Below, in pieces: positions 4,955-63,450 of a DNA stretch of 64,000 bases. Every line of letters starts with the position of its first letter. Positions within the stretch are counted from its first letter, which is position 1. Below the pieces are notes generated by a model. The model made no database searches. It saw only the letters and a list, made by a program, of their open reading frames with translations, and was not told where the DNA came from. The stretch covers positions 5,766,001 through 5,830,000 of the forward strand of contig JAWMAR010000063.1 of assembly GCA_036785375.1 (NCBI GenBank), given 5' to 3'. This DNA is from Leucoraja ocellata. Taxonomy: Eukaryota. Made by a program: the position numbers and the translations under genes.

Positions 4955-5072
4955 GTAGAAATAAGGAACTGCAGATGCTGATTTACGAAATAAAAAACAT
5001 AAAAGTGCTGAAGTAACTGAAGTGGAACAAGCAGCATCTCTGGAGAACATGGATAGGTGACGTTTTGGGTTC
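4955..5072 (-). mobile_element. Penelope-like terminal repeat fragment
   Basis: aaggaactgcagatgctg...gcagcatctctggagaacatggataggtgacgttttgggt, shared with the repeat attached to GIY-YIG remnants. Confidence 0.6.
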
Positions 5073-6286
5073 AAGTTCACATTTATTGTCACATGTTGAG
5101 TTACATGATATTTGAGTTACCATGCAGCCATACAAGTAAAAAAGCAAACAATACACAATAGAGTTTAACATAAACATCCACCACAGTGGAATCAGCACTC
5201 TTCACTGTGATGGAAGGCAATTGTGTATTGTTGCTGTCCCTACCACTTCTTACTTTTGTTTCATTTTGTTTATATGTTTGTAATTTGCTTGTTTTAATCT
5301 GTAAGGTGTCATTGAGAGTCCTGAAAGGCACCCATAAATAAGATGCATTATTATTAATATTATTATTAATAAAGTTCAGTCATTGTTTGTTCAATCATTC
5401 AGATCTGATGAAGAGATAGTTTTAGAGGGAATGAGTGATTACGGTGTGGGATGGGCGGCAAGTCCAGCTGGCTACTTTGCCTGAATAGTGTTGTTGTGAT
5501 TTGAAATTGTTGGCATTGCACCCAACCAAAGCGAGTAGCAAGCACCATATCACTTGTGCCTTGTTATCAGGGTGTGAATATGTGAGTCGCTTGCCATATG
5601 ATGTAGTCTCTGACCTGCATTTAGAGCCATGGTCATTACTTATCTAGCTGTTGTTGAGATATTGGTTAATGGTGACAACCCCCTCCACCCCCCCCCACAC
5701 ACACACAACCTACCCTCTGCAAGTTGATGATAGTGGGGGCCGGGAAACTGCTTGTGCACGTCAAAGATAGGTGCCTAGACGTTGGAGGCGCTCATTGCCT
5801 GGCACTTGACACAAATGCTACTTGCCACTTGTCTGCCCATTCCTGCACTTGCTCTGTTTATTTTCTCTTTGTGCACTCATCCATACATGATATGAATGCA
5901 GTCATGTACAGTATGATCGGTATGGATATCATTGTGCTTTTCACTGTATCTTAGTACACGTGACAATAATATACCAAAAACAATCTGGAACTCTCTCCCT
6001 CTGATGGCTCGTTGAGATAATTATTCTGGCAGCATTTAAGAAGTAATTAGACGAGCGCTTGAAATTGTACAGATGTTCATGAACCAAATGCTGAGAAATA
6101 GGATTCCTATGGGCCAGCGTGTAGCAAAGGCCTGTTTATGTATTGTCTGACTGGATTTGTATTGTCTGACTGGATTTGCTCCTTTTTCTGTTTTCAGGTG
6201 CTTTATATACATTAGAGCTCGCCATATTACCTGATAAATATATTCCAAAGTCTTGTACTTTCATATTCCTATATTTTGAAATCAAA

Positions 6287-6504
6287 GTGGAATTCATTGC
6301 CACAGACAGCTGTGGAGGCCAAGTCAATGGATATTTTTAAGTGGGAGATTGACAGATTCCTGATTAGTATGGGTGTCAGGGGTTATGGGGAGAAGGCAGG
6401 AGAATGGGGTTGAGAGGGAAAGATAGATTAGCCATGATTGAATGGCGGAGTAGACTTGATTAGACCAAATAATCTAATTCTGTATCTAGAACTTATGAAC
6501 TTAT
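6287..6504 (+). mobile_element. CR1-type LINE 3' fragment
   Basis: gtggaattcattgccacag...ggttatggggagaaggcagg... 3' UTR; similar to the copy at 59017-59362. Confidence 0.75.
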
Positions 6505-7544
6505 AAAAGTAAGTGTATTTGCAACTGTGAAAACTATTATAGCATTTTCTGGTGTTGATCATTTATGAGATCAAATATAATGTTACACTTCCCATAAATG
6601 TTTTTGATTTCTCAAGGCAAGTCTTAAAAACATCTTGAATGTCTGCACAAGGTGGACATTAATGAATCAATAACCTGTGCACCGTGGTAAAAAGGTTTTC
6701 CAAATGTTCATTTGGAGCTGTCTGGTTTTCTTCTGTCACTGCCTAACACAAATTGAGAATGTAATCCTTTGTTAATAACCTGCATATTACAATGCCCCTT
6801 TTCTTAGTGTGGAAAATTATTTGAATGTTAAGACAGGGCAATATGGACACTGGTTTTATGTAGCAGGCAGCTAGAATTGAATGCCGATTCTTCCATTTGT
6901 TGCAGAAATTGCAAACAAATTGCTCTTTCCGCATATTGATGAAAGGATTTGTTTTTAATTAAGATTAAGCTTTATTGGTTTTGCAGTGTTTACTGATATT
7001 TTATTAGTCAGCCTGTGGTGCCACATAATATGTATGTCACAACAGCTGGAGGGGATTTACAATCCAGTTGGCTTAAGGAATTTTTAAAAATGGAATAAGT
7101 TAATTGATCACTTGTAACTGTTCTGTCATTCAATGAAATTATGGCCAACATCTTATTTCAGCGCTACCTTCCTGCATTAATCCCAGTACCCCTGGGTTTC
7201 CTTGGTATGAAATGATCTTTAGCGATCTATGTTAGCACAGGCAACTGAGCAGCCTGCTAGAATAGTGACGTCCCAAGATTCACTAATTATTTAAGTGAAA
7301 ACATTATTTCCAAAATCCCTCTCCTGAATGGCTGATCCTTTATTTTGGGACTGTGACCACTCGTTCTGGACACCTCCGCCAGAAGTTAGCACGCAACAAA
7401 AGTTTTTCACTGTACCTCAGTACACGTGACAATAAACTAAGCTAAGTTTAAACTTTGTATTGGCCCTGTAAACCCCATTTTGTATGTTTTAGTTAGATCT
7501 TCAGATTTCCAGGCTTGATAGTACACGTCCAGTTCACTTTTTTA

Positions 7545-8185
7545 AAAAAAGGTACAATGTGCTGGACTAACTCAGAGGGTCGGGCAGCATCTCTGGAGAA
7601 CTGATTGTGGGGGCAATGGGGGGCGGGGAGGGGGGGGGGGGTGGACAAAGCTGGAAGAAAGAAGAGGCAGAACGAAACTTGGCCGGTAATCAGTGGATAT
7701 GGGTTTTTTATGGCCAGATGGTTGGGCTGAGGCCACAGATGAAAAGACAGAAGCTGTGAGATGAAATAATTGAAGAGTTACAAATTGTGAAGCTAGAGGA
7801 AGGAATGTAAGTGGAAGGGGAGGTGGAGAGACAAACAGATGCAGTCCAGGTGTGGCACAGGGGGGAAGGGCAATTTAAGTTATTTAGTATTGAAGAATTT
7901 AATGTTCATACTACTGGATTGCAAGTGCTGTTCCTCCATTTTATGTGTGTCCCCACTCTACCAATGGAGTAGGCCCAGGATGGACAGGTCAATCTGGGAA
8001 AGGGAAGAGAGTTAAAATGTTTAGCAGCCGGGAGATTCAGTACGCCTTTGCGGGCCGATCGGACGTGTTTGGCGAAACAGTCGCCAAGTATACGCTAGGT
8101 CTTGCCAATGTACAGAAGGCCATTTCAGGAACACCAGATGCAGTAGATGTGGTTAGAGGAGGCGCAAGTGAACCTCCATCTAACC
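7545..8185 (-). mobile_element. Penelope-like retroelement remnant (GIY-YIG endonuclease pseudogene + terminal repeat)
   Basis: Minus strand reads RFTCASSNHIYCIWCS*NGLLYIGKT*RILGDCFAKHVRS (IY..YIG.T.R...H motif with stops), followed by the gatgctgcc...agtccagcac terminal repeat. Confidence 0.8.
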
Positions 8186-8596
8186 TGGACTCACTAGCAG
8201 TCCTTCCAGATGACACAGAGGTACATGTACACTTGTATTATCAGGGTTCTTCAGTTTATTACACTGATTCCCCTCATCCAAATTGTTGTTTTTAGATTGC
8301 CAAAGACTGTGCCCTAGTACCAATCCCCTCCAGTCCTAATGCAGGTTTCATCCGAAAACATAGACAATTCCTCTCCCGGCCCCACCAATCCACAGATGAT
8401 GTTTGTCCCACAGCATTTCTGCAGCAGATTGTTTGTTACCCTTGTTACCATTGGTTGCATCCTCCCAACTTGAAAATTACCCATTTATTCCCCCGTTTTC
8501 TGTCAAATAACCAATGCTCAATCCATACTCATGTATTGCCCACAATAAAATGTTATGTACACTTGTTTTATTTAATGACCTCTTGTGGGGTCTGTT

Positions 8597-8855
8597 AAGG
8601 GCCTGTCTCCCTTGGCGATTTTTGTTTGGCGACTGCCAGCATCGTTGACTGACGTATCAGGTCACTGAAAAATACGTGGCGTGACACGGCGTGATGACGT
8701 ATGACGCGGCGGTGACGTGGTGTGATCACGTATGACGCGCGGTGTTTTTTCCTGTGTCGCAAAAACTTTTTGCCGCCGCTGGATTTTGAAATGTTCTAAA
8801 TCTTTTGGAGACACTGATATGACATTGGCAAAATCGGCAAGTGGGACAGGCCCTT
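8597..8855. mobile_element. non-autonomous DNA transposon (MITE, PIF/Harbinger-like)
   Basis: TIRs aagggcctgtctccc...gtgggacaggccctt; CpG-rich interior. Confidence 0.7.
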
Positions 8856-8959
8856 TACTGGCATTGCAAGAGTCCAAATGTACCACACCAACTGGTTCCG
8901 CCTTGGCTATTCTGCTAGTCACAACCTCAAATTTCAAACAGATTTGTCAAATATGTTTG

Positions 8960-9056
8960 GTAGACAGCAATGCTGGAGAAACTCAGCGGGCGAGGCAGCA
9001 TCTATGGAGCGAAGGAAATAGGCAACGTTTCGGGTCGAAACCCTTCTTCAGACCAC
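8960..9056 (-). ncRNA. Penelope-type terminal repeat with minimal hammerhead ribozyme core (9021-9054)
   Basis: Minus strand: ggt CTGAAGA a GGGT-TTCG-ACCC GAAA CG TT gcc. Confidence 0.6.
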
Positions 9057-9625
9057 ACCACTGTCAAATATGTTTTTTTTTTCCATAAATCCATCTTGTC
9101 TCTCTCCATTCCTACATTTGCTTCCCACTTCCTCAATAACAAATTCCAGCATATTCCCCACCACTGAAGTTATGTTAACAGGATTGAAAGGGCTCTATTT
9201 CCTCTCTTTTAAATAGTTGGGTTACATTGCAGTCTTCCAGTCTGCAGTCACATTCTGTTCAAGAATCTAATATTGTGTAACAATCAATGAATCTGCTCTC
9301 TCTAGAGCTGCGCACTTCACAGCCCCAGGATGTATGTCAATGATTACTTTAAACCTAAAAGAACCAACCTGGTTTTTGTAAGATACATTTTCTAAATGGT
9401 TATGTGCATAGCTAGCTCAAATACCATCACATCTGTGAAAACCATTTTATAGCAGTTGGATCTCTGTCAGCATTTCTTTTCTCTCTGGCGCTCGCTCTCT
9501 GGCATTCTCGTTCTCTCACCCAACGTTATGCTCCTCGAAGATAAAATTCTACTGAGAGAATTAGATCAAAGCAGGAGATTTTTATTGTCATGTAGGAACA
9601 CTAAAGGTATAAGGTGCAGTGCATG

Positions 9626-9900
9626 GGAAGGAACTGCAGATTCTGGGGCTGTGAAGTGAGCAGCTGTAGAGAGAGCAGATTCATTGATTGTTACACAATA
9701 TTAGATGCTGGTTTAAACCAAAGATAGACACAAAATACTGGAGTAACTCAGCGGAAAAGGGCGGCATCTCTGGAAAGAAGGAATGGGTGGGGTTTCGGGT
9801 CAAAACCCTTCTTCAGACTGGCTCTGGATCTTCTCTCCAGAGATGCTGCCTGTTCTGCTGAGTTACTCCATCCATTTCGTGTCTATAAAAGTTGCAGTTC
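9626..9900. mobile_element. palindromic Penelope-derived terminal repeat with inserted inverted copy of 9265-9328
   Basis: atagacacaaaatactggagtaactcagc... / ...gctgagttactcc...gtgtctat arms; degenerate hammerhead core on minus strand at ~9785-9818. Confidence 0.65.
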
Positions 9901-10630
9901 ATTTTCTGTGCTGCAGATAATGAGCAAGGACACTTCTGGAAGAGCTGAAGTAATTTTAAGTAAAATGTTAAATAAAGGAATGATTTTAAGTGACAATTAT
10001 AAATAATTAAAATACAATATCTTCTAAGTTTTACCAAAGACTGCACACAGTCAGAAAATGTTAAACAAAGGAGGCCGGTTAAAAAAATAAATAGGAATTG
10101 TCAACAGGCCTTTTTATACTCTTCCTACCAGGCATATGATATATAGAGAATAGCTTTATTTATAACTTGGAGGGAAGAGTGGAAGTTCTATTGTTTTTGG
10201 CGTACATTTGGTCATGCGTACATTATCCATGTTCGATGGTGTCCTTTTAAACGTCTCTATCTGATCATGTTGAGTAACAAGTTTTTGTTTACATCTCTAA
10301 GTTGAAATGAAATCTAAGTTCCTCTGTTTTCAGATCTCTGGAGTCGGCTTCAGTTGCACATCAACTTTCTAACATCTTAAGCTTGCTCGTTGTCTTGCAT
10401 AATGTTGGTCAAAGAGAATAATTATACAGACCTTTTAACAAAATCAATCTGTTCCTCCATTTTGCATCTTTGAGCTTGATTTCAATCTGTTCTGTTTTCC
10501 AAGAGAACTTTGTGTATCTGAGTTATTTTAATTGTGTAATGTCTTAAGACTGAATCCTCCATCGCTTGAGAAAATGTAATTAGATAATATTTCATTGTGA
10601 CTTTTTGTGACTTTCATTCTTTTATTTCAG

Positions 10631-10792
10631 ACGTTTCAAAAGGTTCAGGTGGATCCTATACAGTACAAACTTCAGCAGGCCAATGGAGTGGGTCAGGGTC
10701 TTATTCAGAGTGCTGCAAAGAATGCAAATACACAAGGACTTGAACATGATCTAGATGAAACCAATATCAGATGGAACACGCTCAACAAAAAG
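10631..10792 (+). CDS. MACF1: MACF1 exon (TFQKVQVDPIQ...RWNTLNKK), 162 nt, phase 0-0
   Basis: tttcag|ACG ... AAG|gtcggg; spectrin-repeat peptide. Confidence 0.93.
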
Positions 10793-10924
10793 GTCGGGTT
10801 TTCTTTGTCATTTATGCAAAGCAACATTATTTGGCAGGGTGAGGGTAGGATAGTTATTTATTCCGATGGGAAAGTAATTGAAAAATATTTTAAATAAAAT
10901 CTATATATCGAGACTGTGTGTAAA

Positions 10925-11255
10925 CAGTCATAGAGTCTTACAGCACGGAAACAGGCCCTTCGGCCCAACTCGCTCACACCGGCTAACATGTCCCATCTGC
11001 ACTAGTCCTACCTTCCTGCGTTTGGCCCATATCCCCCTAAATCTGCCCTATCCATGTACCTGTCTAAATGTTTCTTAAACGTTGCGATAGCACCTGCCTC
11101 AACTACCTCTATTGGCACCTTACCACCCTTTGTGTGAAAACGGCAGATCCTTAGTATCAGATCCTTATTAAATCTTTCCCCCCTTAAACCTATGAGCTCT
11201 GGTTCTCGATTCCCCTACTCTGGGCAAGAGACTGTGTCTACCCAATCTATTTCAA
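10925..11255 (-). mobile_element. CR1-type LINE 3' end (subfamily whose tail matches the SINE tail)
   Basis: Minus strand ends gggccgaagggcctgtttccgtgctgtaagactctatgact. Confidence 0.7.
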
Positions 11256-11810
11256 TCACTAGTTCAAAGGAAATTCATTCTGAATGTTGAGTTTCTAGAA
11301 TGGCAAGCAAGTTGGTCAACAAGTACTTGAGCATTTTTTTAAAAGCTTATCAACATTATGATATTTATGTATACTTATAGGCTCCGATTTTGCTGCCAGT
11401 TCCTTGTCCAATATCCACATTTATTCATACCTCCCAATGGCCACCATGAAGTGCAACAGTGTGGCAGGAGCTTGCTAACGCTCCCCCGCACTAAAGTGGG
11501 GGATCTGTTCTGAGATCCTGTGCTAGGTTACACCGACCTGCTACAGAGACTGCAAGCCCCCTCATTTGAAAGTCAGTTGTAGGGCTGCAGAGAAGAAAAA
11601 TTAAAGCATTTAGGCAAGCTATGCTTTAGTTTTAAATATTTGCTTTTAATTTTATTGTTCCATTTTAGAAATATTATTGATATTATTGATAAATATTGAT
11701 TTATTTACAACTGTTTTAAATGGTGCTGAATACTCATAAACATTGATGCATTTTGATGTCAAAGCCAGGGCCAAGGTTCTGCCATCTGTCTAAGTCTTCC
11801 AGAGTAACTA

Positions 11811-13454: not shown

Positions 13455-13808
13455 TAAATGGGCAAGGCCTGTTCTGGCTAACCCACGTTACCCATTACAT
13501 CATTCAAAGCCTTTCCATTAATCAAATCTTCGCCACTTGTCTCTGGATTTGTTGCAGCCAGCAATTTTGACGTTGCTGATTTATAGCAGGTAAACGTATA
13601 GAAGTGGCAGGCACAGGTGCCAAAAAATCTAGACCATCATACTTCATGACTATTCGAAGCGCTTGATACAGAACAAATTATTCACACTTGCTTTTGAATG
13701 AGACCATTCAACCCTTTTCCACGTGCCACATGCAACAACATCTTGTGTTGAAACAAACTAACGAATCAGAAAAAAACAGCTACAATTCTGGCCTTTTGAA
13801 GGATGTAT

Positions 13809-13889
13809 AGGAAGGAACTGCAGATGCTGGTTTACACCAAAGATAAACACACAATGCTGGAGTTACTCCAGCATTTTGTGTCTATCTTG
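13809..13889. repeat. collapsed palindromic Penelope-derived repeat (hairpin)
   Basis: aagataaacacacaatgctggagt|tactccagcattttgtgtctatctt. Confidence 0.65.
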
Positions 13890-14781: not shown

Positions 14782-14820
14782 GTATCTTTTTGTTATCTGA
14801 ATGGTGTCCGATGTGCAATG

Positions 14821-17727: not shown

Positions 17728-17749
17728 GTACATGGCCTTTTTATTTTCA

Positions 17750-18392: not shown

Positions 18393-18518
18393 AGGTAGAG
18401 ACTAATCAAAGTGGTCATCAAATGCCAAAACCTCCATCAATTTTTCAGAACTGCAATTTCCAAACAGTCATTCTTACTCAGGGCAGAATTTTGAAGTCAA
18501 TTTTTTCTATTGTTTATT

Positions 18519-19107
18519 TAGAAACATAGAAATTAGGTGCAGGAGTAGGCCATTCGGCCCTTCGAGCCTGCACCGCCATTCAATATCATCATGGCTGATC
18601 ATCCAACTCAGTATCCCGTACCTGCCTTCTCTCCATACCCCCTGATCCCCTTAGCCACAAGGGACACATCTAACTCCCTCTTAAATATAGCCAATGAACT
18701 GGCCTAGACTACCCTCTGTGGCAGAGAGTTCCAGAGATTCACCACTCTCTGTGTGAAAAAAGTTCTTCTCATCTCGGTTTTAAAGGATTTCCCCCTTATC
18801 CTTAAGCTGTGACCCCTTGTCCTGGCCTACCCCAACATCGGGAACATTCTTCCTGCATCTAGCCTGTCCAACCCCTTAAGAATTTTGTAAGTTTCTATAA
18901 GATCCCCTCTCAATCTCCTAAATTCTAGAGAGTATAAACCAAGTCTATCCAGTCTTTCTTCATAAGACAGTACTGACATCCCAGGAATCAGTCTGGTGAA
19001 CCTTCTCTGCACTCCCTCTATGGCAATAATGTCCTTCCTCAGATTTGGAGACCAAAACTGTACGCAATACTCCAGGTGTGGTCTCACCAAGACCCTGTAC
19101 AACTGCA
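18519..19107 (-). mobile_element. young CR1-type LINE, 5'-truncated
   Basis: [15 protein letters not shown]...[12 protein letters not shown]...[21 protein letters not shown]; 3' tail (tttctatg)n. Confidence 0.9.
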
Positions 19108-19561
19108 TTATTTGAATGGGACAGATCTCCACCCATACTTGTCATTGACCTATGTGGTAAGTGCAAGCTTGTCCAATACAGTTTCACGGTTATCAGTTGG
19201 ATTGCCAAAATCAGGCCAAGCCTCAATGGCAATTACGTGCATAGCACTGGGACCTTGCGTGATAAATGTCAGCACCTCTCAGAGTCAATTGAACATCAAA
19301 CAATTTGAAGAATGTAAAATATTTTGCATTAAAATAATCACAAACTGAATCTCGCCAAAAGATGCTGCTCTATTATGAAGAAGCCATGCTTCGGCTTTTT
19401 AATTTTATTTGAATCAATATCTTTATCACTCAGGTACACACAAAATGCTGGAGGAAATCAGCAGGACAGACAGCATCTTTATCACTCAATCTCCTCCCTA
19501 TTCAAATGCATGAGTCACCGTTCTTGCATTTAATGTAACCCAACTCAGTTTTAAAAGCCTA

Positions 19562-26826: not shown

Positions 26827-27057
26827 TTTAGACATACAGCATGGAAACGAGCCCATTGAGTCCACGCCGGCCGTCAATCACCCATTCGCACTTGGTCTAT
26901 ATTAAGTTACTTTCTCATCCACTCCCTACACACTAGGGGCAATTTCGAGCGGTCAATTAACGGCCTACAAACCCGCTGTTTTTTGGGATGTGGGAGCACC
27001 TGGAGGAAACCCGTGCGGCCACAGGGACAATGTGCCAACTCCACACGGATGGGACCT
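26827..27057 (-). mobile_element. V-SINE (HE1-like), head truncated
   Basis: V-domain and tail shared with the other SINE copies. Confidence 0.7.
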
Positions 27058-27094
27058 ATACGAAACCAAAATGAATGCCATTAAGTGAGCGACT

Positions 27095-27542
27095 GTCAGA
27101 GTGAGGCCCAACTCAAATTTGAGGAACAGCACCTCTTATTTCGGTTGGGCAGCTCAAAACCCAGTGGTATGAATATTGACTTCTCTAACTTCAAATATCC
27201 CTTGTATTTCCACTTTCTCCACCTCTCCCCCATCCTAGTTCTCTGACCAGTCTGACTGTCCAACTGATTAAATTTTACATTGTCTGCCTCGTTGTCGCCT
27301 TCCCCTAGCTAACAATGATTTATTTTACATTTTCGTTGACCTTGGTCCACTTTGATCTCTTGTTTTCACACCTTACCCTTCCATATCTCTCTTTTCCTAC
27401 TTCCCTGACTCTGTCTGAAGAATGGTCTCGACCCGAAACATCACCCATTCCTTCTATCCAGAAATGCTGCCTGTCCAGCTGAGTTACTCCAGCATTTTGC
27501 GTCTATCTTCAGTGGAAACCAGCATCTGCAGTTCCTTCCTAC
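27095..27542 (+). mobile_element. Penelope-like element 3' end: GIY-YIG C-terminus, 3' UTR and hammerhead-bearing terminal repeat
   Basis: SEAQLKFEEQHLLFRLGSSKPSGMNIDFSNFK, then CTGAAGA (27415) atggtctcgaccc GAAA catc, then the terminal repeat ending gcatctgcagttccttcct. Confidence 0.75.
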
Positions 27543-28150
27543 TCATTAAATGTTTGGTTAAGTACACGATGCATACTTAGACATTCATCCCGATTGGTTA
27601 TGCCAAGTGTGATTGATATGCCTTGGTAAAAGTAGGAATGAATTAGGGTTAAGGTTAATGTAGGGTTAACCCCATAGCACCCCTATCTCTCCCCCAATTC
27701 ACTACATAATACATTTAAAGATACAGCCTGGAAAGGGTTCCTAAGCAAACACTCAAGATGAATCTCCAGGAGTCCAGCAAATAAAACAAAATCTCACATC
27801 AACTCTTTATTGCAGAAATTTTAGTGTTTCAAATTGGTGATTTTCTGCCTTACTGTGAATCAGTTGTTGGGGCAATATTTAAAAGAAACGTGAAAGATTG
27901 TTGTAAGATATTTACTTACAATTAGATTAAAAACACAGAAAATACAGTATAAGAATAGGCCCTTTGGCTGGCAATGTCTGCTTCAGAATGCTTGATATAT
28001 ATTCTCATGCCCATTTCATTAACAAGAGTATTGACAATGGAACTTTAATTTTGTGTTAAATTGAATTTACTTTTGAGCATTAGGTTAACATTGTCCTGCT
28101 CCGTTGAGTATAACGACCCAATGTTTTGTTTACTAATGTTGTTTCCTTAG

Positions 28151-36032: not shown

Positions 36033-36316
36033 GGGCAGCGCAGGGGTACAGCGGTAGAACTGCTGCCTCACAGTGCCAGGTACCCAGATCTGACCCTGAC
36101 TACAGGTGCTGTCTGTGTAGAGTTTGCACGTTCTCCCAGTGACCCTGTGAGTTATCTGCGGTTTCCTCACCCATTCCAAAGATGTGCAGGTTTGTCGGTC
36201 AATTGGCTTCCGTAAGTTGTATAAGATGCGAATATGGGATAACATAGAACTAGTGTGCGGGTGATGGAGGGTCAGCATGGGCTGAAGGGCCTGTTTCCAC
36301 GCTATTTCTCCAAACT
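36033..36316 (+). mobile_element. tRNA-derived V-SINE (HE1-like)
   Basis: tRNA-like head, cggtttcctc V-domain, gggcctgtttccacgct tail. Confidence 0.85.
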
Positions 36317-40554: not shown

Positions 40555-40676
40555 AAAGTCAGAAGCAGGGTCCCGCCATGAAACATCACCTGCCCATTTC
40601 CCCCCAGAGATGCTGCTTCACCTGCTGAGTTACAACAACACTTTTTGATTTACTAAAGATTCCAGCATCAGTGGAT
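40555..40676 (+). mobile_element. degenerate Penelope-type terminal repeat
   Basis: agaagcagggtcccgccatgaaacatcacc...agagatgctgc...ctgagttac. Confidence 0.55.
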
Positions 40677-41500
40677 CCATATGACTCCGTACTAAGGTCC
40701 TGTATCAGTTTGAATTATCTGTGGTCATTGTTCAAATATGAAGCAGCATTTACCCCGCACACATGATTGATGTGAATGAACATGTTATATTTGGTTTTAA
40801 TATTCAACTAAATAAAACTTGCTCATTAAATTAATCCAAAGTGAAACTCTCCTATTCAGTTAATAAGAATTGCATACATGAATGTATTTTCATGCTGGTG
40901 ATAGTTAGTTTATCACGTTCTAACTAATGTGAAGATAAAGAGAAGAAAAAGCTCTGCACCTCTGATTTAGGGAGATAAAATTGCTGTTAATCTGCTTTGC
41001 TTTCAGTGACAGAAGGCAAACCATACTTTTGTGCTGCAATTATGAATTATTTACTTTTTTAGAATCTCTCAGCTGGGGGAAATCTCTAGAACTGTGTATT
41101 TAAATAGATTGAACAGTAATATACAATTACTAAATAATAATGTGTCTATGAAGCATAATTAACGTGGCTTCCTAGAGGTGTTTCCAAACTAAATGCCCCA
41201 TGAGGTGTAAGGGTAGATCAACAAAATTTTAGTCAAGAGATATAGACATTAAAGAGAGTTTTTAAGGAGCGTGGTGGGTAGAAATGTGGGAAGTTTCATG
41301 AAGAGAATTTCAGAGTTGAAGGCCTTAACAACTGAAAATCCAGGAGACATTGATGGAACATTTTACGTGCCGGTAGTTAGGCTATAATGCCATAGTTACA
41401 TTACGAAGGAACCCGGGTATATTAAATAGTCACGTAATTAACAGAACATGCTGTAGTTGCCTTCTAAGAACGGATTTAAACAGGTTTTCACAATCACAGT

Positions 41501-42090
41501 TCCCAAACTGCCTATAACCCACTGGGGCCCCAGTTTCTGCACTCCCTTTAACAAACTGGGACCCTGGTCCCCACGCTTCCTATAACACTAGGGCCCTGAT
41601 TCCCATGCTCCCTTTAACACACTGGGGCCCCAGTTTAGTGTTTAGATTAGTTTACAAATACAGCACGGAAATAGGCCCTTTGGGCCACCAAGTCCGCACT
41701 GACCAGCGATCCCCGCACATTAACACTGCCCTACACACCCTAGGGACAATTTTACATTTATATCAAGCCAATGACCCTGCAAACCTGTACGTCTTTGGGG
41801 TGTGGGAGTAAACCAAACATCTCGGAGAAAACCCACGCAGGTCATGGGAAGAACACAGAGAATCTCCGTACAGACAGCATCTGCGGTCAGGATTGAACCC
41901 AGGTGCTATAAGGGGGTAACACTACCGCTACGCCACTGTGCCGCCCACACTTCTTGTAACACTGGGGCTCCGGTTCCCATGCTTCCTGTAACACACTGGG
42001 GCCACGGTTCTCATCCTTCCAATCATACTGGGGCCTGTGCCTTCACTCCATTCATATTCACCCGTGCTCCAGTTCCTGTACTCCCTTTAA
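41501..42090 (+). repeat. degenerate ~33-35-bp minisatellite interrupted by a SINE
   Basis: Units like cccatgctccctttaacacactggggccccagtt, ~4 on each side of the SINE. Confidence 0.7.
41633..41946 (-). mobile_element. tRNA-derived V-SINE (HE1-like)
   Basis: Reverse complement of the 61084-type SINE. Confidence 0.85.
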
Positions 42091-42371: not shown

Positions 42372-42696
42372 TTTAGTTTAGTTTAGAGATACAGCATGAA
42401 AACAGGCCCTTCTGCCCACTGTCCTCACTGACTACCAATCACCCGTTCACAGTAGTTCTATGTTATCCCACTGTCACACTCATTCCCTACACACTAGGGG
42501 CAATTGTTAGAAGCTAATTAACCTACTAACTCGCACGCCTTGGGATGTGGGAAGAAACTGGAGCACCCGGGGGAAACCCACGCGATCACAGGGAGAACAT
42601 GCAAATTCCACACAGACTTCACCCAAGGTTGGGATGGAACCCAGGTCTCTAACGCTGTGAGGCAGCTGCTCTGCCAGCTGTGCTACTGTGCCGCCC
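42372..42696 (-). mobile_element. tRNA-derived V-SINE (HE1-like)
   Basis: tttagtttagtttagagatacagcatg...ctgtgccgccc. Confidence 0.88.
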
Positions 42697-44710: not shown

Positions 44711-44990
44711 GAGAAACAAGCCCTTCGGCCCACCGAGTCTGCGCCGACCAGCGATCCCCACACACTAACACTATCCTACACACACTAGAGACAATTTACA
44801 ATTGTACCAATTAACCGACAAACCTGTACATTTTTGTAGTGTGGGAGGAAAATGGAGATCCCGGAGAAAACCCATGCAGGTCTTGGGGAAAACATACAAA
44901 CTTCGTACAGACAAGCACCAGTAGTCGGGATCGAACCCGGGTCTTTGGCGCTGTAAGGCAGCAATTCTACTGCTGTGCCACCTTGCCACC
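44711..44990 (-). mobile_element. tRNA-derived V-SINE (HE1-like)
   Basis: B box (ggatcgaacc on + strand), V-domain, tail. Confidence 0.85.
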
Positions 44991-45811: not shown

Positions 45812-46012
45812 AAAAGACACGGAGTGCTGGAGTAATTTAGGTGGTCAGGCAGCATCTCTGAAGAACATGGATAGATGACATTTCGGGTTGAGTCTTTTGA
45901 AGCTTTCCAACCTGAAAGGTCACCTATTCATGTTCTTCACAGATGCTGCCTGACCCACTGAGTTGCTCCATCACTTTATATATTTTTGTGTAAAGCAGCA
46001 TCTGCAGTTCCG
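45812..46012. mobile_element. palindromic Penelope-derived terminal repeat
   Basis: gtgctggagtaa...ggcagcatct...atttcgggttg / caacctgaaaggtcacctattcatgttc...agatgctgcctgacc...gcatctgcagttcc. Confidence 0.65.
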
Positions 46013-46217
46013 GTTGATTCTACAATCTTCTTAATATTGTAACAACATGCCAACAGCTCGAGAAAGAATAAGGGGAAATATTGGTGGAAAAAGTAGGAAA
46101 GAAAAACAGTCTCTCATTTGGTCGCCATGATTTAAAAATTGTTGCATTCTTACCTGTATAAAATTAGTTTACCAGTGTGGATGGCACGTAACGTTCCCAT
46201 TGTGTTTCTTGCCACAG

Positions 46218-47196: not shown

Positions 47197-47500
47197 CTAG
47201 TGTAGAGATGCAGCATGGAAACGGGCACCATCAGCCCACCAAGTCAACACTGACCATTGGTCACCTGTTCACACTACTTTTATGTTATCCCACTTTCGCA
47301 TTACTCCCTACGCACTAGGGGTAGTTGACAGAGGCCCATTTAACCTACAAAGCCACACGTCTTTGGGATGTGGGCGGAAACCGGAGCACCCGGAGTAAAC
47401 CCACGTGGTCACAGGTAGAGAGTGCAAACTCAACACAGACAACACCCAAGGTCAGGATCGTGTAACGCAGCAGTTCTACCAGCCGCACCACCGTGCACCC
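47197..47500 (-). mobile_element. tRNA-derived V-SINE (HE1-like)
   Basis: Same head, V-domain and tail. Confidence 0.82.
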
Positions 47501-54204: not shown

Positions 54205-54450
54205 CCCCCAAACACTAGTTCTATGTTATCCAACTTTCTCATCCACTCCCTATGCAAAATTCACAGAGGCCATTTAATCTACATTTTTTCCAATGTCTTT
54301 GGGATGTGGGAGGAAATTGCAGCATCCACAAAAAGCCCACGAGATCATAGTCAGAACATGCAAACTCCACACAGATAGCATGGTAAATTCGAACCCGGGT
54401 CTCTTGTTTCTTCGAGGCTTCAGCTCTACCAGCTAGGCCACTGTGCTGCC
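54205..54450 (-). mobile_element. degenerate V-SINE
   Basis: actagttctatgttatcc...ttgggatgtgggaggaaa...tcgaacccgggtctct. Confidence 0.7.
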
Positions 54451-55445: not shown

Positions 55446-56185
55446 CCTGGTGCTCTCCACTATTTTTGGCCGTATTAGTGGGTTGGGGGGTTTCCGTCAG
55501 AGTAGCCTGGGTGAGTAATTGCACTGAGTTTTGCCAGTGATCCACATTAGAGACACCATGTGTCCATTGTAGAGGAATAAATGTTGATTGAATGCCAAGC
55601 ATGCATGATGCTTTGTCTTGGGTAATAGAGATATCCTGACAGGTTTTGGCACTGTTCTCACCTCGGCAACTCTCCCAGTTTAGACCAGCATAATTCTTCC
55701 TTTCTCCTCTTCAAATTAGCACTCTTCTTTATCCCTGTTAATTTCAATTATGGTTCATTCCTTTCTCAGCTTATGTAATGTTGCACCTTTGAAACTAGCG
55801 CCTCCCAAGAATTACTGTAAATTGCTTTCAGCCCGGCATGCAACAAGGTTGAAACGTTAACCAAGCGACACTGGGTATCATTTCCAAACAAGGTAGAAGA
55901 AAGAAGGCATGTATCTTTGTTCACAAATGCCGTTTGGAAAATACTGGCCTTTGAGTTTGATATTTGATACAGTTGGATATTTTTGCACGCATTTCTCTCA
56001 GCACAATTATCTTCCCATATTATCTTCTCGAAGGAGAAAGAACACTTCAGCAGTCCGATCCATGAGCTCTCCGAAATACTCCTGACTCCAAACTAAGCGG
56101 GTCTACTTGCATATTTTCAGCTGAAATGTACCATTGATTTTATTCCAAGTGAGTTTAGTTCCGAATATTTTTGTTTTAATCCCAG

Positions 56186-56305
56186 TTCTACGAAGCCTGG
56201 AAAAAGTTGATTGACTGGCTGGAAGAAGCAGAAAACAATCTGGATACTGACATAGAAATCTCCAATGACCCAGATAAAATCAAACTGCAGCTTACAAAGC
56301 ACAAG
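56186..56305 (+). CDS. MACF1: MACF1 exon ([14 protein letters not shown]...QLTKHK), 120 nt
   Basis: tcccag|TTC ... AAG|gtaaga. Confidence 0.95.
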
Positions 56306-56364
56306 GTAAGAAATCTATTTTTTCATAAAATTGGATTGAATTTGTTTAAAAATCAAAGTACAAC

Positions 56365-56752
56365 ATCAAGAGTCAAGAGTGTTTGGGGTCCAAGTTCATA
56401 CCTCCCTGAAAGTGGCAACACAACTGGATAGAATGGTTAGAAAAGACGCATGGTTAGCTTGCCTTCATTGGTCGAGGCATTGAGGATAAGAGTCAAGAAG
56501 TCATGTCGCAGCTTTATAAACCCCTTTTACGTGAAGGATGTGGCGGCTTTGGTGGGGGTTGCAGAAGGGGTTTACCAAAGGTTGGACAAACTTGGATTGT
56601 TTTCTCAGGAGAGGCTGAGGGGAGACCTGATCAAAGTTTATAAAATCATGAGAGACGTAGATGTAGTTGACAGTCAGAACCTTTTCCCCAGTGTGGAAAT
56701 GTCAAAGACTAAAGGGCATAGCTTTAAGGTCAGAGGGGGGGGCAGTTTAAAG
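56365..56752 (+). mobile_element. CR1-type LINE fragment
   Basis: RLDKLGLFSQERLRGDLIKVYKIMR...KTKGHSFKVRG. Confidence 0.75.
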
Positions 56753-57341
56753 GAGATGCTGCCTGACCCGCTGAGTTACTCCAGTATTTTATGTCTATCT
56801 TTAATGTATTGGAATTTCTATCTATATTGATCTCTGGTGATAGAGAAAGAAATGTGAACATCCTTGTTTAACTGTGAATAGCAAATTGCTGGATATATCC
56901 ATACTGAACCACCCATGCAATCCTTTCCTTACTCTATGTTTACAATTGTGGCGATAGCTAATGACAGATAACCAGTATGAACTGTTGAAGAGCAGACATC
57001 GTGCTCATTGTTCCTTGCTGACAATTTTTCCCTGGGCAGGTTGGGACTCCTGTGAAACTCCTTCCATCTGCTCCATTTTGTTTGAGCAGCTTGCACCGCA
57101 CTGTGCACCTTCTGCTCATTTTTGATGTCTTGCTTTGTTGCAACGAGCAAGTAACTGTGAACACTTTGATTTTTGCCGAAACCTTCAAATTAGCGCAAGG
57201 TTCCTACTTCACCTGTCACGCGATTCCCTGCAGGCATTAATAACTTGAGGACGCTACAGAAAGCACCAAACGCTATGAATCATAACGTAAGTCATAAGGA
57301 CTTTTGACTGCAAGTCATACAGTCAGTCTGTACGTCAAGAG

Positions 57342-57468
57342 TAGAAGCAAGGAACTGCAGAAGATGGTTTACAAACATTTGCTGAAGAAGGGTCCCGACC
57401 AGAAACATCACCAATCACCAAGAGATGCTGCCTGACCCACCGAGTTACTCCAGCACTTTGTGCCTATA
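57342..57468 (+). mobile_element. Penelope-type terminal repeat with degenerate hammerhead core (57382)
   Basis: CTGAAGA agggtcccgacca GAAA catc...agagatgctgcctgaccc...ttactccagcac. Confidence 0.6.
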
Positions 57469-58189
57469 GGTTTTAGATCTTTCACATTAAACGTGATTGG
57501 TGGGTGGGTAGGCCTTTGTTGCTGCTTGCCTGTTTGACAGTATGAGATTGAGAGAGCATTGGGTTCCAAGGTCGAAATGACAACACTGAAGTCTACCACT
57601 GTCAAATGCTGATTGACAACTTGATCTGCCTTCAATGTGCACACTTCCAGAAGACATTCAATCTGTGTATTTTAACACCCTTGCAAATGTGTGCCTACCG
57701 AATAGAATGGTGGATCAAATCCAAATTCTTTTCAAAGGAATCTAATATTTTTGCCTACCTGGGGTGGTTCAGAAATGAATCCAAGGAAAGAATCAAGGTC
57801 TTCAAATGGCAGCTGCAACACTTATTGAATGTATATAATATTTCTAATTGGGAAATCAATTCTAGTTATAAAACTGTTGATTAAATAAAGTTCCATAAAT
57901 AAGTGGTTGATATAGTGCCCAAAGATTTGCAGACCTGGAGTTGGTATTCTGAACCATTTGACTATACAAATATAATTTTGTGAAACAAATTACATAATTT
58001 GTTGCCAAATACTGTGGACAAAGAAGTTCCAGCGGCAATCTAAGTTTTGGGCATCAACTCAAAAATGTCGATGCATTTAATAGCCAAATTAGTAATTGCC
58101 AACACGGGATATGATGTGTTATTCAGAGACGTACAGTCTGTGCCCTTGCATATCTAGCGTTATTGTGGTTTTCTTTCAAATTAAACTAG

Positions 58190-58359
58190 GATTTTCAAAG
58201 AACTCTGGGTGGGAAACAGCCAGTGTATGATACCACAGTCCGCATGGGCCGCTCGATGAAAGATAAGGCTTCACATGCGGATGACCATCCGAAATTGGAC
58301 AATCTCCTTGGAGAAGTGCGAGACAAGTGGGACACCGTCTGTGGCAAGTCAGTCGAGAG
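58190..58359 (+). CDS. MACF1: MACF1 exon ([16 protein letters not shown]...CGKSVER), 170 nt, phase 0-2
   Basis: aactag|GAT ... GAGAG|gtgagg. Confidence 0.94.
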
Positions 58360-58796
58360 GTGAGGGAGAAAAATTAAAGCGTTAACAATTGTTTCTTAAT
58401 ATTTTCTCATGAAGAAAGTGATTCTGTGGCTTACCATTCAGCAACAATTGGTGCATAAGACCTGGCAATTGTTCCGATTAATATCCATTATGTGCATATC
58501 ATAATTAAGCTCGTTTTAACATGTTCTATTAAGTAGAAGAACTGTCTGCATTTAGCAATGGGGTGCTTTATCAATATTCATGCTTCTCTGCAACATTATT
58601 TCCCAGAGATTACATTACATGATACTATTACATTATGTTACATCAACATGCAAGTGTAAACTGATGTTTATAAGATGATTATTTGCTTAGAATGTCAATT
58701 TTGTTTGGGTTGATATAATTTCATAATTGTATGTTTAATATTTTCAGTGTAATTTTCACCAATATTACAGTTTGTTTATTTCCTCATCCTCCTCAG

Positions 58797-58956
58797 GCAG
58801 CACAAGTTGGAAGAGGCCCTGCTGTTTTCAGGGCAGTTTACTGACGCTCTCCAAGCGTTGGTTGACTGGCTGTACAAGGTTGAGCCGCAGTTGGCTGAGG
58901 ATCAACCTGTCCATGGAGATCTAGATCTGGTGATGAACCTGTTGGATGCTCACAAG
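58797..58956 (+). CDS. MACF1: MACF1 exon ([14 protein letters not shown]...LLDAHK), 160 nt, phase 2-0
   Basis: cctcag|G CAG ... AAG|gtagag. Confidence 0.95.
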
Positions 58957-59016
58957 GTAGAGTTTTATTGCTCAGAAGGCTATGCATTCATCTTTGCACT
59001 AACTTAACACAAACAA

Positions 59017-59362
59017 AAATAGTGAAAGGTCTGGATAGAGTGGATGTGGAGAGGATATTTCCACTAGTGGGAGAGTCTAGGACCAGAGGTCATAGCCACA
59101 GAATTAAAGGACATTCCCTTAGGAAGGAGATGAGGAGGAATTTCTTTAGTCAGAGGGTGATGAATCTGTGGAATCCATTGCTACAGAGGTCGTGGAAGCC
59201 AAATCAATTGATATTTTTAAGGCAGAGATAGGTAGATTCTTGATTAGTATAGGTGTCAGGAGTTATGGGGAGAAGGCAGTAGAATGGGGTTAGGAGGAAG
59301 AGATAGATCAGCCATGATTGAATGGCAGTGGACTTGATGGGCTGAATGGCCTAATTCTGCTC
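59017..59362 (+). mobile_element. CR1-type LINE 3' end
   Basis: KIVKGLDRVDVERIFPLVGESRTRGHS...FFSQRVMNLWN. Confidence 0.85.
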
Positions 59363-59537
59363 CGAACAAATACGTACACTTGCATGAACGTACAGCTGAA
59401 AGTTCTATAAGGCTTAATTTCTGCAAAAAGGTAGAACTGTTAGTTTGTGCTGAAAACTTTACGAGAAGTAGATTTTTTTATGCTTTACTTACAAATAGAT
59501 TTCACACACTGAAACGACTTGTGTTTTATTTATACAG

Positions 59538-59732
59538 GTTTTCCAAAAGGAACTTGGCAAGCGCACGGGGAGCGTGCAGGTCCTGAAAAGGTCGGCCCGT
59601 GAACTGATTGAGAACAGCCACGATGATACAACCTGGGTGAAGGCTCAACTGCAGGAGTTGAGCATACGATGGGACATAGTGTGCAAACTCTCCGTCTCTA
59701 AACAGACGCGGCTTGAGCAGGCACTTAAACAG
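59538..59732 (+). CDS. MACF1: MACF1 exon ([16 protein letters not shown]...EQALKQ), 195 nt
   Basis: atacag|GTT ... CAG|gttaaa. Confidence 0.95.
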
Positions 59733-59961
59733 GTTAAATTAATGTTTTCAAATTCTATTTTAACTTAATCTTATCCAAGTTTTTAAAAATCCACCAGTAC
59801 TTGCTATAGCATCAGGGAAACTATGATGCATTGTTTCACACAGCACTGATAACTAATAATGTAGGTTATTATCTATGATGAAAATAATTTCACAGCTGCT
59901 GAGAGGTTGAAAATAAGGTGAAAATATTTTGCAAGACAAAACCTGTTGATCTGTCGTTTGA

Positions 59962-60185
59962 AAGATAGACACAATGTGCTGGAGTAACTCAGCGGGTCAG
60001 GCAACATCTCTGGTGACAAAGGATGGGTGATGTTCAGGTCGAACCCTTTTTCGGGTCTGAAGAAGGGTTCGGACCTGAAACGTCACCCATCCTTTTTCTC
60101 CAAAACTGCTGCCTAACCTACTGAGTTGCTGCAGTACTTTGTGTCTTATCTTTGGTATCAACCAGCATCGGCAGTTCTTTGTTTC
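59962..60185. mobile_element. palindromic Penelope-derived element with ~90-bp inverted arms
   Basis: aaagatagacacaatgtgctggagtaactcag... / ...ctgagttgctgcagtactttgtgtcttatcttt. Confidence 0.72.
60053..60088 (+). ncRNA. minimal type I hammerhead ribozyme motif (Penelope-type)
   Basis: GGGT CTGAAGA A GGGT-TCGG-ACCT GAAA CG TC ACCC; stem I GGGT/ACCC, palindromic ACGT stem III, GUC triplet. Confidence 0.6.
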
Positions 60186-61083
60186 TCTGATCCCTCATTC
60201 AGTTTGTCAAGCAGACCCATGATGAATTAATTTTCACTCCATGTTAGCTTTATCTCAAGAAATCATGAATCAGTTTCCCATTCATTCAGACCTCATCTGT
60301 TCTGTACCAATGACTACATTTGCTCCATTTCCTTTGACATGCCAAATTAACAAATATGTTTTAGATCTAAGCCTTGGAAATTTCTACTAACCCTGCATTT
60401 TATGATAAGAAGTCCATATTCTGCTAACTTCATTAAATGGATCTTGGGTTCACCAACATCACTCAAGCCAGTATTTGCCAACTCATTTCACTCCAGGGGA
60501 CAGCAGAGAGCACTGATGCACTGTTGAAGATGTCTGTTCTAGAACTCGCTAGATCTCTAGCCTAGTAAAATAACAGCCCTAGCTTTCATCTATGTTAGAA
60601 ACCTCTCACGAAAAACAAGATGTATCCAATATGGCCAAATTACAACCAATCAGTCTTTTCTCATTCATCAGTCAAGTAATTCATAATGCTCTCACATGAC
60701 ACTTATTATAATCTCATTAGACAACTAATTCATAATCCTCTCATGTGGCACTTATTATAATCTCTTTGCCGATGTCCAGTTTGGATTTCAAGATCAACAG
60801 CTCCAGACCTCTTCATGTCCTTGGACAAAACAAGGAAACTCCCTCCACAAAAGCTCCAGAAAGACTGGAGCAGTTCCAGGCAATGGCTCACCATTGTCAT
60901 CTAACGGGAAAATGGAGATGGCCAATAAGTGCTGACCTTGCCAGAAATGCACAGACCCCAAGAATAAAGGCATTTAAATAAAAATAAGTGCTCCCTGAGT
61001 GATCTAGTCCTGATTTTAGGGTTGGGTTTTTCATTCTTATCCATCTAAGCTCAAGGGACCACAAACCAAGCAGATGAAAACTA

Positions 61084-61379
61084 GGGCGGCACGGTGGCGC
61101 TTCGGTAGAGTTGCTGCCGTACAGCGCTTGCAGTGCCAGAGACCCGGGTTTGATATTGACGGAGTTTGTACGTTCTCCCCGTGACCGCGTGGGTTTTCTC
61201 CGAGATCTTCGGTTTCCTCCCACACTCCAAAGACGTGCAGGTATATAGGTAAATTGGCTTGGTAAATGTGAAAATTGTCCCTAGTATGTGTAAGGTAGTG
61301 TTAATATGCACGGATCACTGGTCGGCGCGGACCCGGTGGGACAAAGGGCCTGTTTCCACGCTGTATTTCTAAACTAAAC
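61084..61379 (+). mobile_element. tRNA-derived V-SINE (HE1-like)
   Basis: gggcggcacggtggcgc...cggtttcctcccacactcc...gctgtatttctaaactaaac. Confidence 0.88.
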
Positions 61380-61912
61380 ATAGAAACATAGAAATTAGGT
61401 GCAGGAGTAGGCCATTCGGCCCTTCGAGCCTGCACCGCCATTCAATATGATCATGGCTGATCATCCAACTCAGTATCCCGTACCTGCCTTCTCTCCATAC
61501 CCTCTGATCCCCTTGGCCACAAGGGCCACATCTAACTCCCTCTTAAATATAGCCAATGAACTGGCCTCAACTACCCTCTGTGGCAGAGAGTTCCAGAGAT
61601 TCACCACTCTCTGTGTGAAAAAAGTTCTCCTCATCTCGGTTTTAAAGGATTTCCCCCTTATCCTTAAACTGTGACCCCTTGTCCTGGACTTCCCCAACAT
61701 CGGGAACAATCTTCCTGCATCTAGCCTGTCCAACCCCCTAAGAATTTTGTAAGTGTCTATAAGATCCCCTCTCAATCTCCTAAATTCTAGAGAGTATAAA
61801 CCAAGTCTATCGAGTCTTTCTTCATAAGACAGTCCTGACATCCCAGGAATCAGTCTGGTGAACCGTCTCTGCACTCCCTCTATGGCAACCTTCTCTGCAC
61901 TCTCTCTATGGC
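61380..61912 (-). mobile_element. young CR1-type LINE, 5'-truncated, tail-to-tail with the SINE
   Basis: [42 protein letters not shown]...FFTQRVVNLWNSLP; near-identical to 18519-19107. Confidence 0.9.
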
Positions 61913-62315
61913 ATCTGCACGGTACCTGTTGAAATGTGGTGCCAAAATTGAACACAGCACATCAGGTTATCTATTACTTGTATCTTTTTCCCCTCTGCAT
62001 GCCACTTACTTTTGAGATAAAGCAAATATTTCATTGTACAATAAGATTACATTCTATGCATAAACATTAACTTTAGTGATTTGCATCCAGCTACAGTGCC
62101 AACCATTAAGAAAGAATTTCATTAACTATTTTGGTTACCTGTTAAATGAAATTTGGATGAGAAGATATAATGAGAAATTCCTATCAGAATCATTTCCTGC
62201 TATGTCGCTGTAATCTGCAGTTTTACAGCACCTGCAGTCCACAACCTGACCACCATTCAAGTGTAAAGTGAAGGGGCGATTTAATTGATTTTTGTTTTAT
62301 TGAATTTGGTCCCAG

Positions 62316-62444
62316 GCAGAGGAATTCCACAATGTCGTCCATGGGCTGCTGGAGTGGCTATCTGAGGCTGAGCAATCACTTCGATTCCGAGGAGTTCTAC
62401 CGGATGATGTGGAGGCTCTACAGTCCTTGATCGATCTACACAAG
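62316..62444 (+). CDS. MACF1: MACF1 exon ([14 protein letters not shown]...LIDLHK), 129 nt
   Basis: tcccag|GCA ... AAG|gtgggt. Confidence 0.94.
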
Positions 62445-62501
62445 GTGGGTTGCCCAGCTGAAGGCGATTATTTTAAAACAATCACTCTGGTCGTCTAAAA
62501 A

Positions 62502-62827
62502 GGGGCACACAGTGGCGCAGCTGGTAGAGCTGCAGCCTCATGGTGCCAGAGACCAGGGTTCAATCCAGACCTCGGGTGCTATCTGTGTGAAGTTTACGTG
62601 TTCTCCCTGTAACTGTAGGTTTCCACCGGGTGCTCCATTTCCCTCCCACAACCTAAAGATGTGCAGATGCATAGATTAATTGGACTGTACATTGCCCCTA
62701 GTATGTGGGGAGTAGATGAAAAAGTGGGATAACATAGAGCTGGTATGAATGGGTGATCAATGGTCAGTATAGACTTGGTGGGCCAAAGGACCTGTTTCCA
62801 TGCCGTATTATTTATAAATTAAACTAA
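62502..62827 (+). mobile_element. tRNA-derived V-SINE (HE1-like)
   Basis: A box tggcgcagctgg, B box ggttcaatcc, tail. Confidence 0.85.
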
Positions 62828-63284
62828 AAAGGCTAAATATCAAAATCATAGTATGACATCAATTATGAAATATATGCATTTGACCTTCTGAACTTTAAAA
62901 ACTCAACCTCAAATTACTTTTAGTGATGTTTTGCTTAAACATTATTTAAAGTTAAAGCATTGAGGGCTACCTATTATTAACAGTATTGAAGGCGGATTGT
63001 CTAAATCCTAAGAGTTAAGAACATTTACAAGTTTGCCATGGAATATTCCTGGAAATTAAATTGTAAAAAGCATTTAAGGCTGAAAGGAATAACATAGTAC
63101 TACTGTGTGTATTAAAAAAAAAAAAAGTTTTAAATTAAATATCTGGTTCAATGCGTGCACTGCAAAACTGCAGAACTGAAATTCTTAAACAGTGAATTGT
63201 GTGTGTATTCGAAAAACTTTGACTATATATTTCTTGCATTCAGCACAATAGAACTTAGCTTTAAATTGAGTACCATACTTTGCG

Positions 63285-63450
63285 TGCAAAAAGCAGCAGA
63301 ATACTGGAGGAACTCAATGGTGCAGGCAGCATCTGTGGAGGAAATGGACAGGTGACTTTTTGGGTCAGGACCCTTCTTCGGTCTGAGTTCCTCCAGCACT
63401 TTGTTGTTTTTTGCTCAAGATTCCAGCATCTGCACTTCCTTGTGTCTCCA
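63285..63450. mobile_element. palindromic Penelope-derived terminal repeat (partially deleted)
   Basis: ctggaggaactca...ggcagcatctgtggag...acccttcttc / tgagttcctccagcac...ccagcatctgcacttcctt. Confidence 0.6.

Follow-up and report, generated by a model that had tools for sequence, protein, structure and literature searches.

A 64-kb stretch of the Leucoraja ocellata genome (GenBank assembly GCA_036785375.1, contig JAWMAR010000063.1, positions 5,766,001 to 5,830,000; here called the window) contains short dispersed repeats, several of them arranged as head-to-head palindromes. Judged from their sequence, these repeats are the hammerhead-plus-tail end of the pseudo-long terminal repeat (pLTR) of Neptune-type Penelope-like elements (PLEs). 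Each stub or palindrome is probably (at about 75%, in our estimate) the dead by-product of one insertion by the PLE's own protein, with the two arms of a palindrome being two complementary DNAs (cDNAs) of one RNA. Considering that the junctions were mixed, that pairs carried one tail and their own target duplication, that equal junctions occurred across subfamilies and that no short-only lineage was seen, the palindromes were likely formed anew at each insertion rather than constituting a family of their own.

Source element and copies in the window

The repeat was searched in the window, 64 kb within a 3.44-Gb assembly, by BLAST and with a 142-position core profile, which gave 0 matches on reversed sequence; positions within the repeat are numbered from the C of CUGA in the hammerhead (+1). 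A first-pass annotation of the window had reported at least 11 copies of one repeat, and all 11 sites were recovered together with three further profile matches (19424-19480, 56753-56808, and a weak one at 8343-8436), giving 20 arms in total. The Penelope origin that it proposed was borne out by pLTR identity with intact elements and by GIY-YIG remnants in two window copies (7545 and 27411), both of which continue upstream into the GIY-YIG end of the PLE open reading frame (ORF), so the family as a whole is not free of coding sequence. The remnant in the 7545 copy matched Pfam at E 6e-4 (below the cutoff) and shared 60% identity with the intact ORF over 60 aa. This copy is also devoid of a hammerhead, owing to a ~40-nt deletion (window 7600-7612) starting at the motif's front edge.

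Intact young elements were found elsewhere in the genome by protein search, and their copies were nearly identical (n = 17, median 99.7% identity over 1.3 kb). They encode a single 1,221-aa ORF with reverse transcriptase (RT), a DKG motif, a CX4CxxC linker and, at the C terminus, a GIY-YIG endonuclease (EN), are flanked by copies of the repeat, and form tandem units of ~3.95-4.0 kb. The Pfam RVT_1 match of this ORF had an E value of 1.4e-6, just under the cutoff, while two cysteines between GIY and YIG and the DKG plus CX2-5CxxC linker between RT and EN agree with endonuclease-positive (EN+) PLEs. DKG and linker features mark Neptune or Nematis, with the linker common to Nematis (PMC8557442), and the presumed Neptune type is based on these ORF motifs. 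The insertions also have the layout of EN+ PLEs, namely, a partial tandem of pLTRs, an inverted 5'-truncated partner, a tail at one end and a target duplication. The repeat itself consists of the hammerhead, ~65 further bases and an optional ~35-nt tail, with the ORF starting ~35 nt past the tail. The young family additionally has a long proline-rich N-terminal insert in its ORF, and its hammerhead had 22,899 exact matches.

In a genome sample of 60 arbitrarily picked 10-kb stretches from the 60 largest contigs (600 kb), 348 arms covered 5.4% of the bases, which extrapolates to about two million arms and ~430,000 pairs genome-wide; the assembly contains duplicated stretches, so these copy numbers are inflated. 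One such stretch, contig C329:2110513-2110833, duplicates part of the window at 99% identity. The sampled arms fell into eight sequence clusters, seven of which included copies with 3' untranslated region (UTR) or ORF upstream, the eighth consisting of five degenerate arms. Their 3' ends were bimodal, at about +95 (tailless) and +130 (tailed). The window copies were as follows.

4957..5071, minus: solo pLTR end with tail, beginning inside stem II, without the CUGA box; old subfamily (BLAST, profile)
7543..8200, minus: 5'-truncated PLE copy with broken GIY-YIG remnant (7895-8187), 3' UTR, deleted hammerhead and tailless end
8343..8436, plus: weak, heavily decayed copy (profile E 2.7e-5)
8959..9054, minus: solo tailless stub, -2 to about +93, with the whole hammerhead motif; perfect 14-bp target duplication (8945-8958, 9062-9075), ~7 nt filler
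9626..9886, both strands: head-to-head pair of a tailed minus arm (9626-9821) and a tailless plus arm without hammerhead (9830-9886); target duplication 12/14
13804..13889, both strands: head-to-head pair without any hammerhead, minus arm tailed, plus arm tailless, joined at a short self-complementary motif; target duplication 14/15
19433..19474, minus: tailless ~42-nt stub, additional to the earlier list; perfect 14-bp target duplication
27080..27545, plus: 5'-truncated PLE copy with the last endonuclease codons (27097-27192), pyrimidine-rich 3' UTR, hammerhead (27415-27442, stems II and III damaged) and tail
40556..40686, plus: solo tailed stub beginning at the hammerhead edge, core broken; old subfamily
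45813..46024, both strands: head-to-head pair, minus arm tailless, plus arm tailed, both motifs broken
56753..56808, plus: tailless stub without hammerhead, additional to the earlier list
57343..57467, both strands: head-to-head pair of a tail-only minus arm and a tailless plus arm with intact core bases, stems II and III damaged
59961..60187, both strands: head-to-head pair, hammerhead reached by both arms; plus arm tailed with the whole motif (60057-60084), minus arm tailless with a broken one
63292..63447, both strands: head-to-head pair of a tailless minus arm with broken core and a tailed plus arm without hammerhead

Head-to-head pairs thus occupied six sites (9626, 13809, 45812, 57342, 59962 and 63285). 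The earlier picture of inverted pairs with ribozyme ends meeting at the center fits 59962 and 45812 at most; one arm is without the motif at 9626, 57342 and 63285, and neither arm has it at 13809. At 9640-9709, the tail of the 9626 pair is interrupted by 70 nt copied in inverted orientation from nearby host DNA (9262-9331, 94% alike). Of the 13 old window insertions, 5 had no target duplication above chance and 3 had a borderline one.

Formation of the head-to-head pairs

Under the proposed mechanism, the GIY-YIG endonuclease would nick both strands ~14 nt apart, and reverse transcription would start within the RNA from one or both nicked ends, from one of them at the end of the tail (+130) and from the other at its start (+95). 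Where both ends prime, two cDNAs of the same RNA would meet head to head, connected by filler or by short stretches of self-complementarity. Such priming from two ends agrees with the behavior of an anole PLE protein, which extends both strands from two internal sites (PMC11167929).

Neighboring sampled arms within 60 nt lay head to head in 75 cases, tail to tail in 11 and on one strand in 11. Among the old pairs with two clear ends, exactly one tail was present in 50 of 60 (30 expected, p 7e-8). For young copies, a motif of the young family gave 6,612 matches, of which the first 100 were used; with 7 duplicate loci removed, this yielded 105 arms of at least 96% identity; all 23 young pairs combined one tailed with one tailless arm, each pair having its own 13-18 bp target duplication. 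A measure of upstream extension was confounded by the palindromes and was not used for counts. Two junctions recurred, at 737 and 1,938 loci, and both lie on self-complementary motifs of the element. In the first 15 loci of each, arms differed by 1.3-1.4 bases within a locus and by 2.4-3.4 between loci (28 loci, two omitted), and the central base came from the tailed versus the tailless arm in ratios of 7:7 (one complex locus omitted) and 9:6 (29 loci in all, read by eye), as predicted by annealing of two strands.

The first-pass annotation had preferred to see in the palindromes a non-autonomous ribozyme-bearing retroposon family, transcribed and mobilized as a unit by the PLE protein. The two recurrent junctions and the extrapolated number of pairs speak for such a family, as do the ability of rotifer pLTRs to mobilize other DNA in trans (PMC3846280) and the uneven spread of the 1,938-locus class along the first contigs. 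However, the 81 pairs compared (sample plus the six window pairs) fell into 65 junction classes, the same recurrent junction occurred in several subfamilies (first 15 loci of each class), and the center base was uncoupled from the side of the tail. Nor was a short-only lineage seen, nearest-neighbor agreement being 0.68 versus 0.67 when shuffled (169 arms, p 0.54). Moreover, both outer ends coincide exactly with RT start sites, which the copying of a palindrome would not restore; the ORF-start sequence required by the anole protein on its template (PMC11167929) is missing from the stubs; and the two motifs lie on opposite strands. This explanation is accordingly very improbable. As for the placement of the 1,938-locus class, none was listed in the first 18 Mb of contig C1 or on C3, and many on C2 and C5 (C1-C5 examined), which may reflect the search or the chromosome class. 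The alternative named in the same annotation, extreme 5'-inverted truncation products, was the better of its two readings, except that many ends, instead of being random, cluster at the front edge of the hammerhead.

An inverted arm could also arise if one strand folded back or primed itself on an antisense template (Arkhipova et al. 2013), which is the published interpretation (PMC3846280, discussion) and would suit both the junctions, often on short palindromes or with small fold-back fillers, and the variants common to both arms. Were a tailed first cDNA to fold back, the tailed arm would have to reach further at its 5' end than the other, but in many pairs it is the shorter one; the central base derives from either arm about equally, and arms differing by up to 1.3 kb in length occur. 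We consider this route unlikely, and the two-end priming proposed here differs from it in that both nicked ends, rather than one strand on antisense RNA, would start synthesis.

Ends at the hammerhead front edge and small tandem arrays

The 5' ends of young arms were concentrated at the front edge of the hammerhead, where 35 of the 78 arms reaching +3 ended within -9..+3, as did 18 of 59 solos. The end rate there was raised about tenfold, at 4.9% per base compared with 0.5% at +4..+58 and 0.2% at -100..-10 (105 arms, p 7e-23). The profile edge was ruled out as the source of this pile-up with an exact long reference. Passes over the same edge inside longer insertions, taken from the upstream pLTRs of 21 long copies and the later rounds of small arrays, stopped in 3 of 49 cases against the 35 of 78 (p 1e-6, hand-entered tallies), which argues for an RNA end rather than a barrier. 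The pile-up therefore likely marks an RNA end. In the proposed mechanism it would be the start of a linear RNA, probably a transcription start at the initiator-like TCAGTCT, and the 5' leader of that RNA would be what most stubs copy. TCAGTCT fits the initiator consensus. In Drosophila Penelope, an internal promoter that includes an initiator has been described (PMC2377424).

Alternatively, the copies could be ordinary 5' truncations from the 3' pLTR, with the pile-up caused by an RT barrier (structure, bound protein or C-rich tract) or by a 3' splice site. A C-rich tract and a branch-point-like CTRAY followed by CAG do lie just upstream of the edge, and the intron of Drosophila Penelope ends at helix I (PMC4209133). 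The scarcity of stops on internal passes and the solos, which adjoin their target duplication directly without an upstream exon, stand against this explanation, which we regard as rather doubtful. Its cause is helped by one of several observations that weigh against copying from two nicked ends of an RNA beginning at the hammerhead edge, namely that no cap-derived extra G was seen at the pile-up. The edge is also ragged (-5 to +3), and none of 21 full-length copies stopped at it in the upstream pLTR, indicating that a simple linear mRNA is not the sole template; internal passes may, in addition, be enriched for processive enzymes. The young sample was drawn from two contigs only, 37 of 65 non-majority sites were unshared between the arms of a locus, and the likeness of arms within a locus could come from later gene conversion. 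The long copies need another template, candidates being read-through, a jump and the circle that PMC4209133 puts forward.

In RNA reads from a related species, the repeat was covered ~2,000-4,000-fold on both strands, and the first 1.4 kb of the ORF mostly under 5-fold, in the two oligo-dT runs. Their commonest upstream loose ends were -3 and -2, reflecting the same genomic junctions; neither -3 nor +29 exceeded the threshold as a site where reads begin or end, and since such libraries are unsuited to show these ends, this is no evidence either way. Several hundred of the reads (joint 27494 to 27457) carried a short tandem repeat of ~66 nt from the repeat without the CUGA box.

Small tandem arrays were revealed by the motif leading from the tail into the ORF, which matched at 153 places in the assembly. 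Many of these are head-to-tail arrays of a fragment running from an upstream point (x) to a point in the ORF start (y), with units of 200-700 nt; each locus has a single junction and at most four complete units, 3' ends lie at +95 or +130, and the target duplications are in most cases clear. All 22 tabulated junctions differed, and three recurred at a second locus with other flanks. The point y was often +267, where 57 matches break, most of them joined to varied upstream points; recurrent fragment 3' ends within the ORF start were also seen at +242 and +202, and such ends often fell between a G and an A. A nuclease site, a protein footprint or an RT landing site are candidate causes of these recurrent ends. 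Back-splicing was rejected as the origin of the array junctions, with no GT/AG at the ends.

Five array loci carried their own junction in both inverted arms, one such junction being unique to its locus (3 matches in the assembly) and another occurring also once elsewhere. The same junction in both arms suggests that one RNA likely templates both. At two loci one arm ended at x itself, which somewhat favors jumps on a linear RNA rather than a closed circle. From their sequence organization, the arrays look to have been made during insertion, not by later local amplification. The fuller account would be that one RNA is copied from both nicked ends at two sites, that stubs run off its 5' end at the hammerhead edge, and that pLTR-ORF fragments are copied repeatedly, by end-to-end jumps or on circles, producing retrozyme-like arrays de novo in a single insertion; for this we see the chances as about even.

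State of the hammerhead and comparison with known systems

The minimal hammerhead named by the first-pass annotation is present in the young element, where the core bases, the extra base after A9, G10.1-C11.1 and the palindromic 15.2-16.2 are intact, as in minimal type I motifs. Only two pairs of helix I hold, short of 4-5 bp; helix I of Drosophila Penelope likewise has 2 bp (PMC4209133). In the copies the motif has decayed. It is spanned by 8 of the 20 window arms, with all core bases kept in 4 and the whole motif (core, stem II and ACGT palindrome) in only 2 (9054 minus and 60054 plus), while in the genome sample 65 of 170 spanning arms kept the core and 24 the whole motif. No hammerhead family of Rfam was found in the window at E up to 1, the minimal motif lying outside those models.

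Covariation in stem II, which had been proposed as a check, was absent among 61 copies, with a score of 0.164 versus 0.168 for shuffled alignments (325 of 500 shuffles as high); the 61 were chosen out of 138, 9 of the first 70 being dropped as gapped or misregistered. The only differences among subfamilies were a U-A to U-G change in stem II and changes in the loop. The core boxes were identical in the 7 well-defined cluster majorities, with varying flanks, and this constancy may point to selection in the source elements. Among copies, conservation of the non-CpG core was 0.955 versus 0.917 (biased by end trimming), the composition-matched ranges being 0.93-0.97 versus mostly 0.91-0.97, and G12, at 0.70, decayed like CpG sites.

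For the three longest window pairs, folding of the plus strand gave hairpins of -95 to -128 kcal/mol. Folding did not favor the motif in solo stubs either, with a stem II probability of at most 0.09, so that folding alone says little about activity. Because the motifs of a palindrome lie on opposite strands, a dimer within one transcript is impossible; dimer cleavage of such motifs has reportedly been observed by Lunse et al. No pile-up of 5' ends was seen at the cleavage site (+29..+34; 5 of 105, p 0.17), with a like picture in sets of 174 and 151 arms, all of low power. The anole motif cleaves only with protein and is dispensable for insertion in vitro (PMC11167929). The hammerhead would act, if at all, in the RNA of the source element.

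The inverted pLTR, the tail and the minimal hammerhead are already published, and the repeat is not a new ribozyme element. Published Neptune insertions comprise partial tandems, an inverted head-to-head pLTR, a 30-40 bp tail at one end and a target duplication (PMC8557442, PMC3846280), and an inverted pLTR with tail also appears in PMC8969392. The elements described here share ORF layout and motifs, pLTR, inverted partner, one-sided ~35-nt tail and target duplication with those Neptune EN+ PLEs but differ in that insertions are often <250 bp, in their abundance (about two million arms, extrapolated), and in the 5' pile-up at the hammerhead edge, which the accessible parts of the first two papers do not describe. 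With the minimal type I hammerheads that metazoan PLEs carry (Cervera and de la Pena 2014, PMC4209133) they have in common the CUGANGA and GAAA boxes, the extra base before stem II, G10.1-C11.1, the palindromic 15.2-16.2, the absence of loop 3, and an occurrence mostly as dispersed single motifs, some close together on opposite strands; the predicted motif here has a stem II of 4 bp, a stem I of only 2 bp and no covariation. The anole Poseidon element PAc (Frangieh et al. 2024, PMC11167929) resembles them in having two internal RT start sites that bound the tail and in nicking and extending both target strands by a protein predicted to be dimeric, whereas it belongs to another clade and its ORF starts inside the hammerhead rather than ~35 nt after the tail; that paper makes no link from two-strand extension to inverted insertions. 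Animal non-LTR (long terminal repeat) retrozymes, proposed as pLTR derivatives (PMC7229834; bioRxiv 10.64898/2026.07.22.740005), are likewise hammerhead bearing, noncoding and pLTR related, and the arrays here resemble them as head-to-tail units of 200-700 nt. Unlike retrozymes, the window copies are solos or inverted pairs, no head-to-tail tandem units with hammerheads being found in the window, and the arrays have locus-specific junctions, RT-start ends and target duplications.

In L1 twin priming, synthesis on a single RNA starts from both target strands, and microhomology joins the resulting inversion; the L1 arms cover different parts of the RNA, whereas both arms here cover the same part, offset by the tail. 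The twin-priming and array results go beyond the literature searched, in which neither such a mechanism nor palindromic non-autonomous Neptune elements were described (subscription papers, Repbase and preprint supplements lay outside its scope).

As for its other contents, the window spans exons with spectrin-repeat matches (Pfam Spectrin E 3.7e-5), which we take to belong to a plakin gene (dystonin or MACF1, for example). At 990-1855, a 56-nt unit occurs five times at a spacing of 114-123 nt (one 456) and is probably a coding repeat in a large exon of this host gene. A second abundant family resembling short interspersed nuclear elements was present at 26860-26961, 36162-36265, 41668-41855, 42421-42635, 44713-44894, 47243-47458, 54212-54394, 61161-61377 and 62508-62783, and RT fragments of long interspersed nuclear elements were found at 18504-18803 and 61366-61961.

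The value of these repeats lies in a very large natural record of how PLEs insert. The proposal gives testable numbers, including two priming sites, the spacing of the nicks, a single RNA behind both arms, an end of the template at the edge of the hammerhead and fragments that are copied repeatedly, and the presence of an intact young element in the same genome makes testing practical. Repeated copying of short RNA fragments, if true, would show how retrozymes originate from PLEs.

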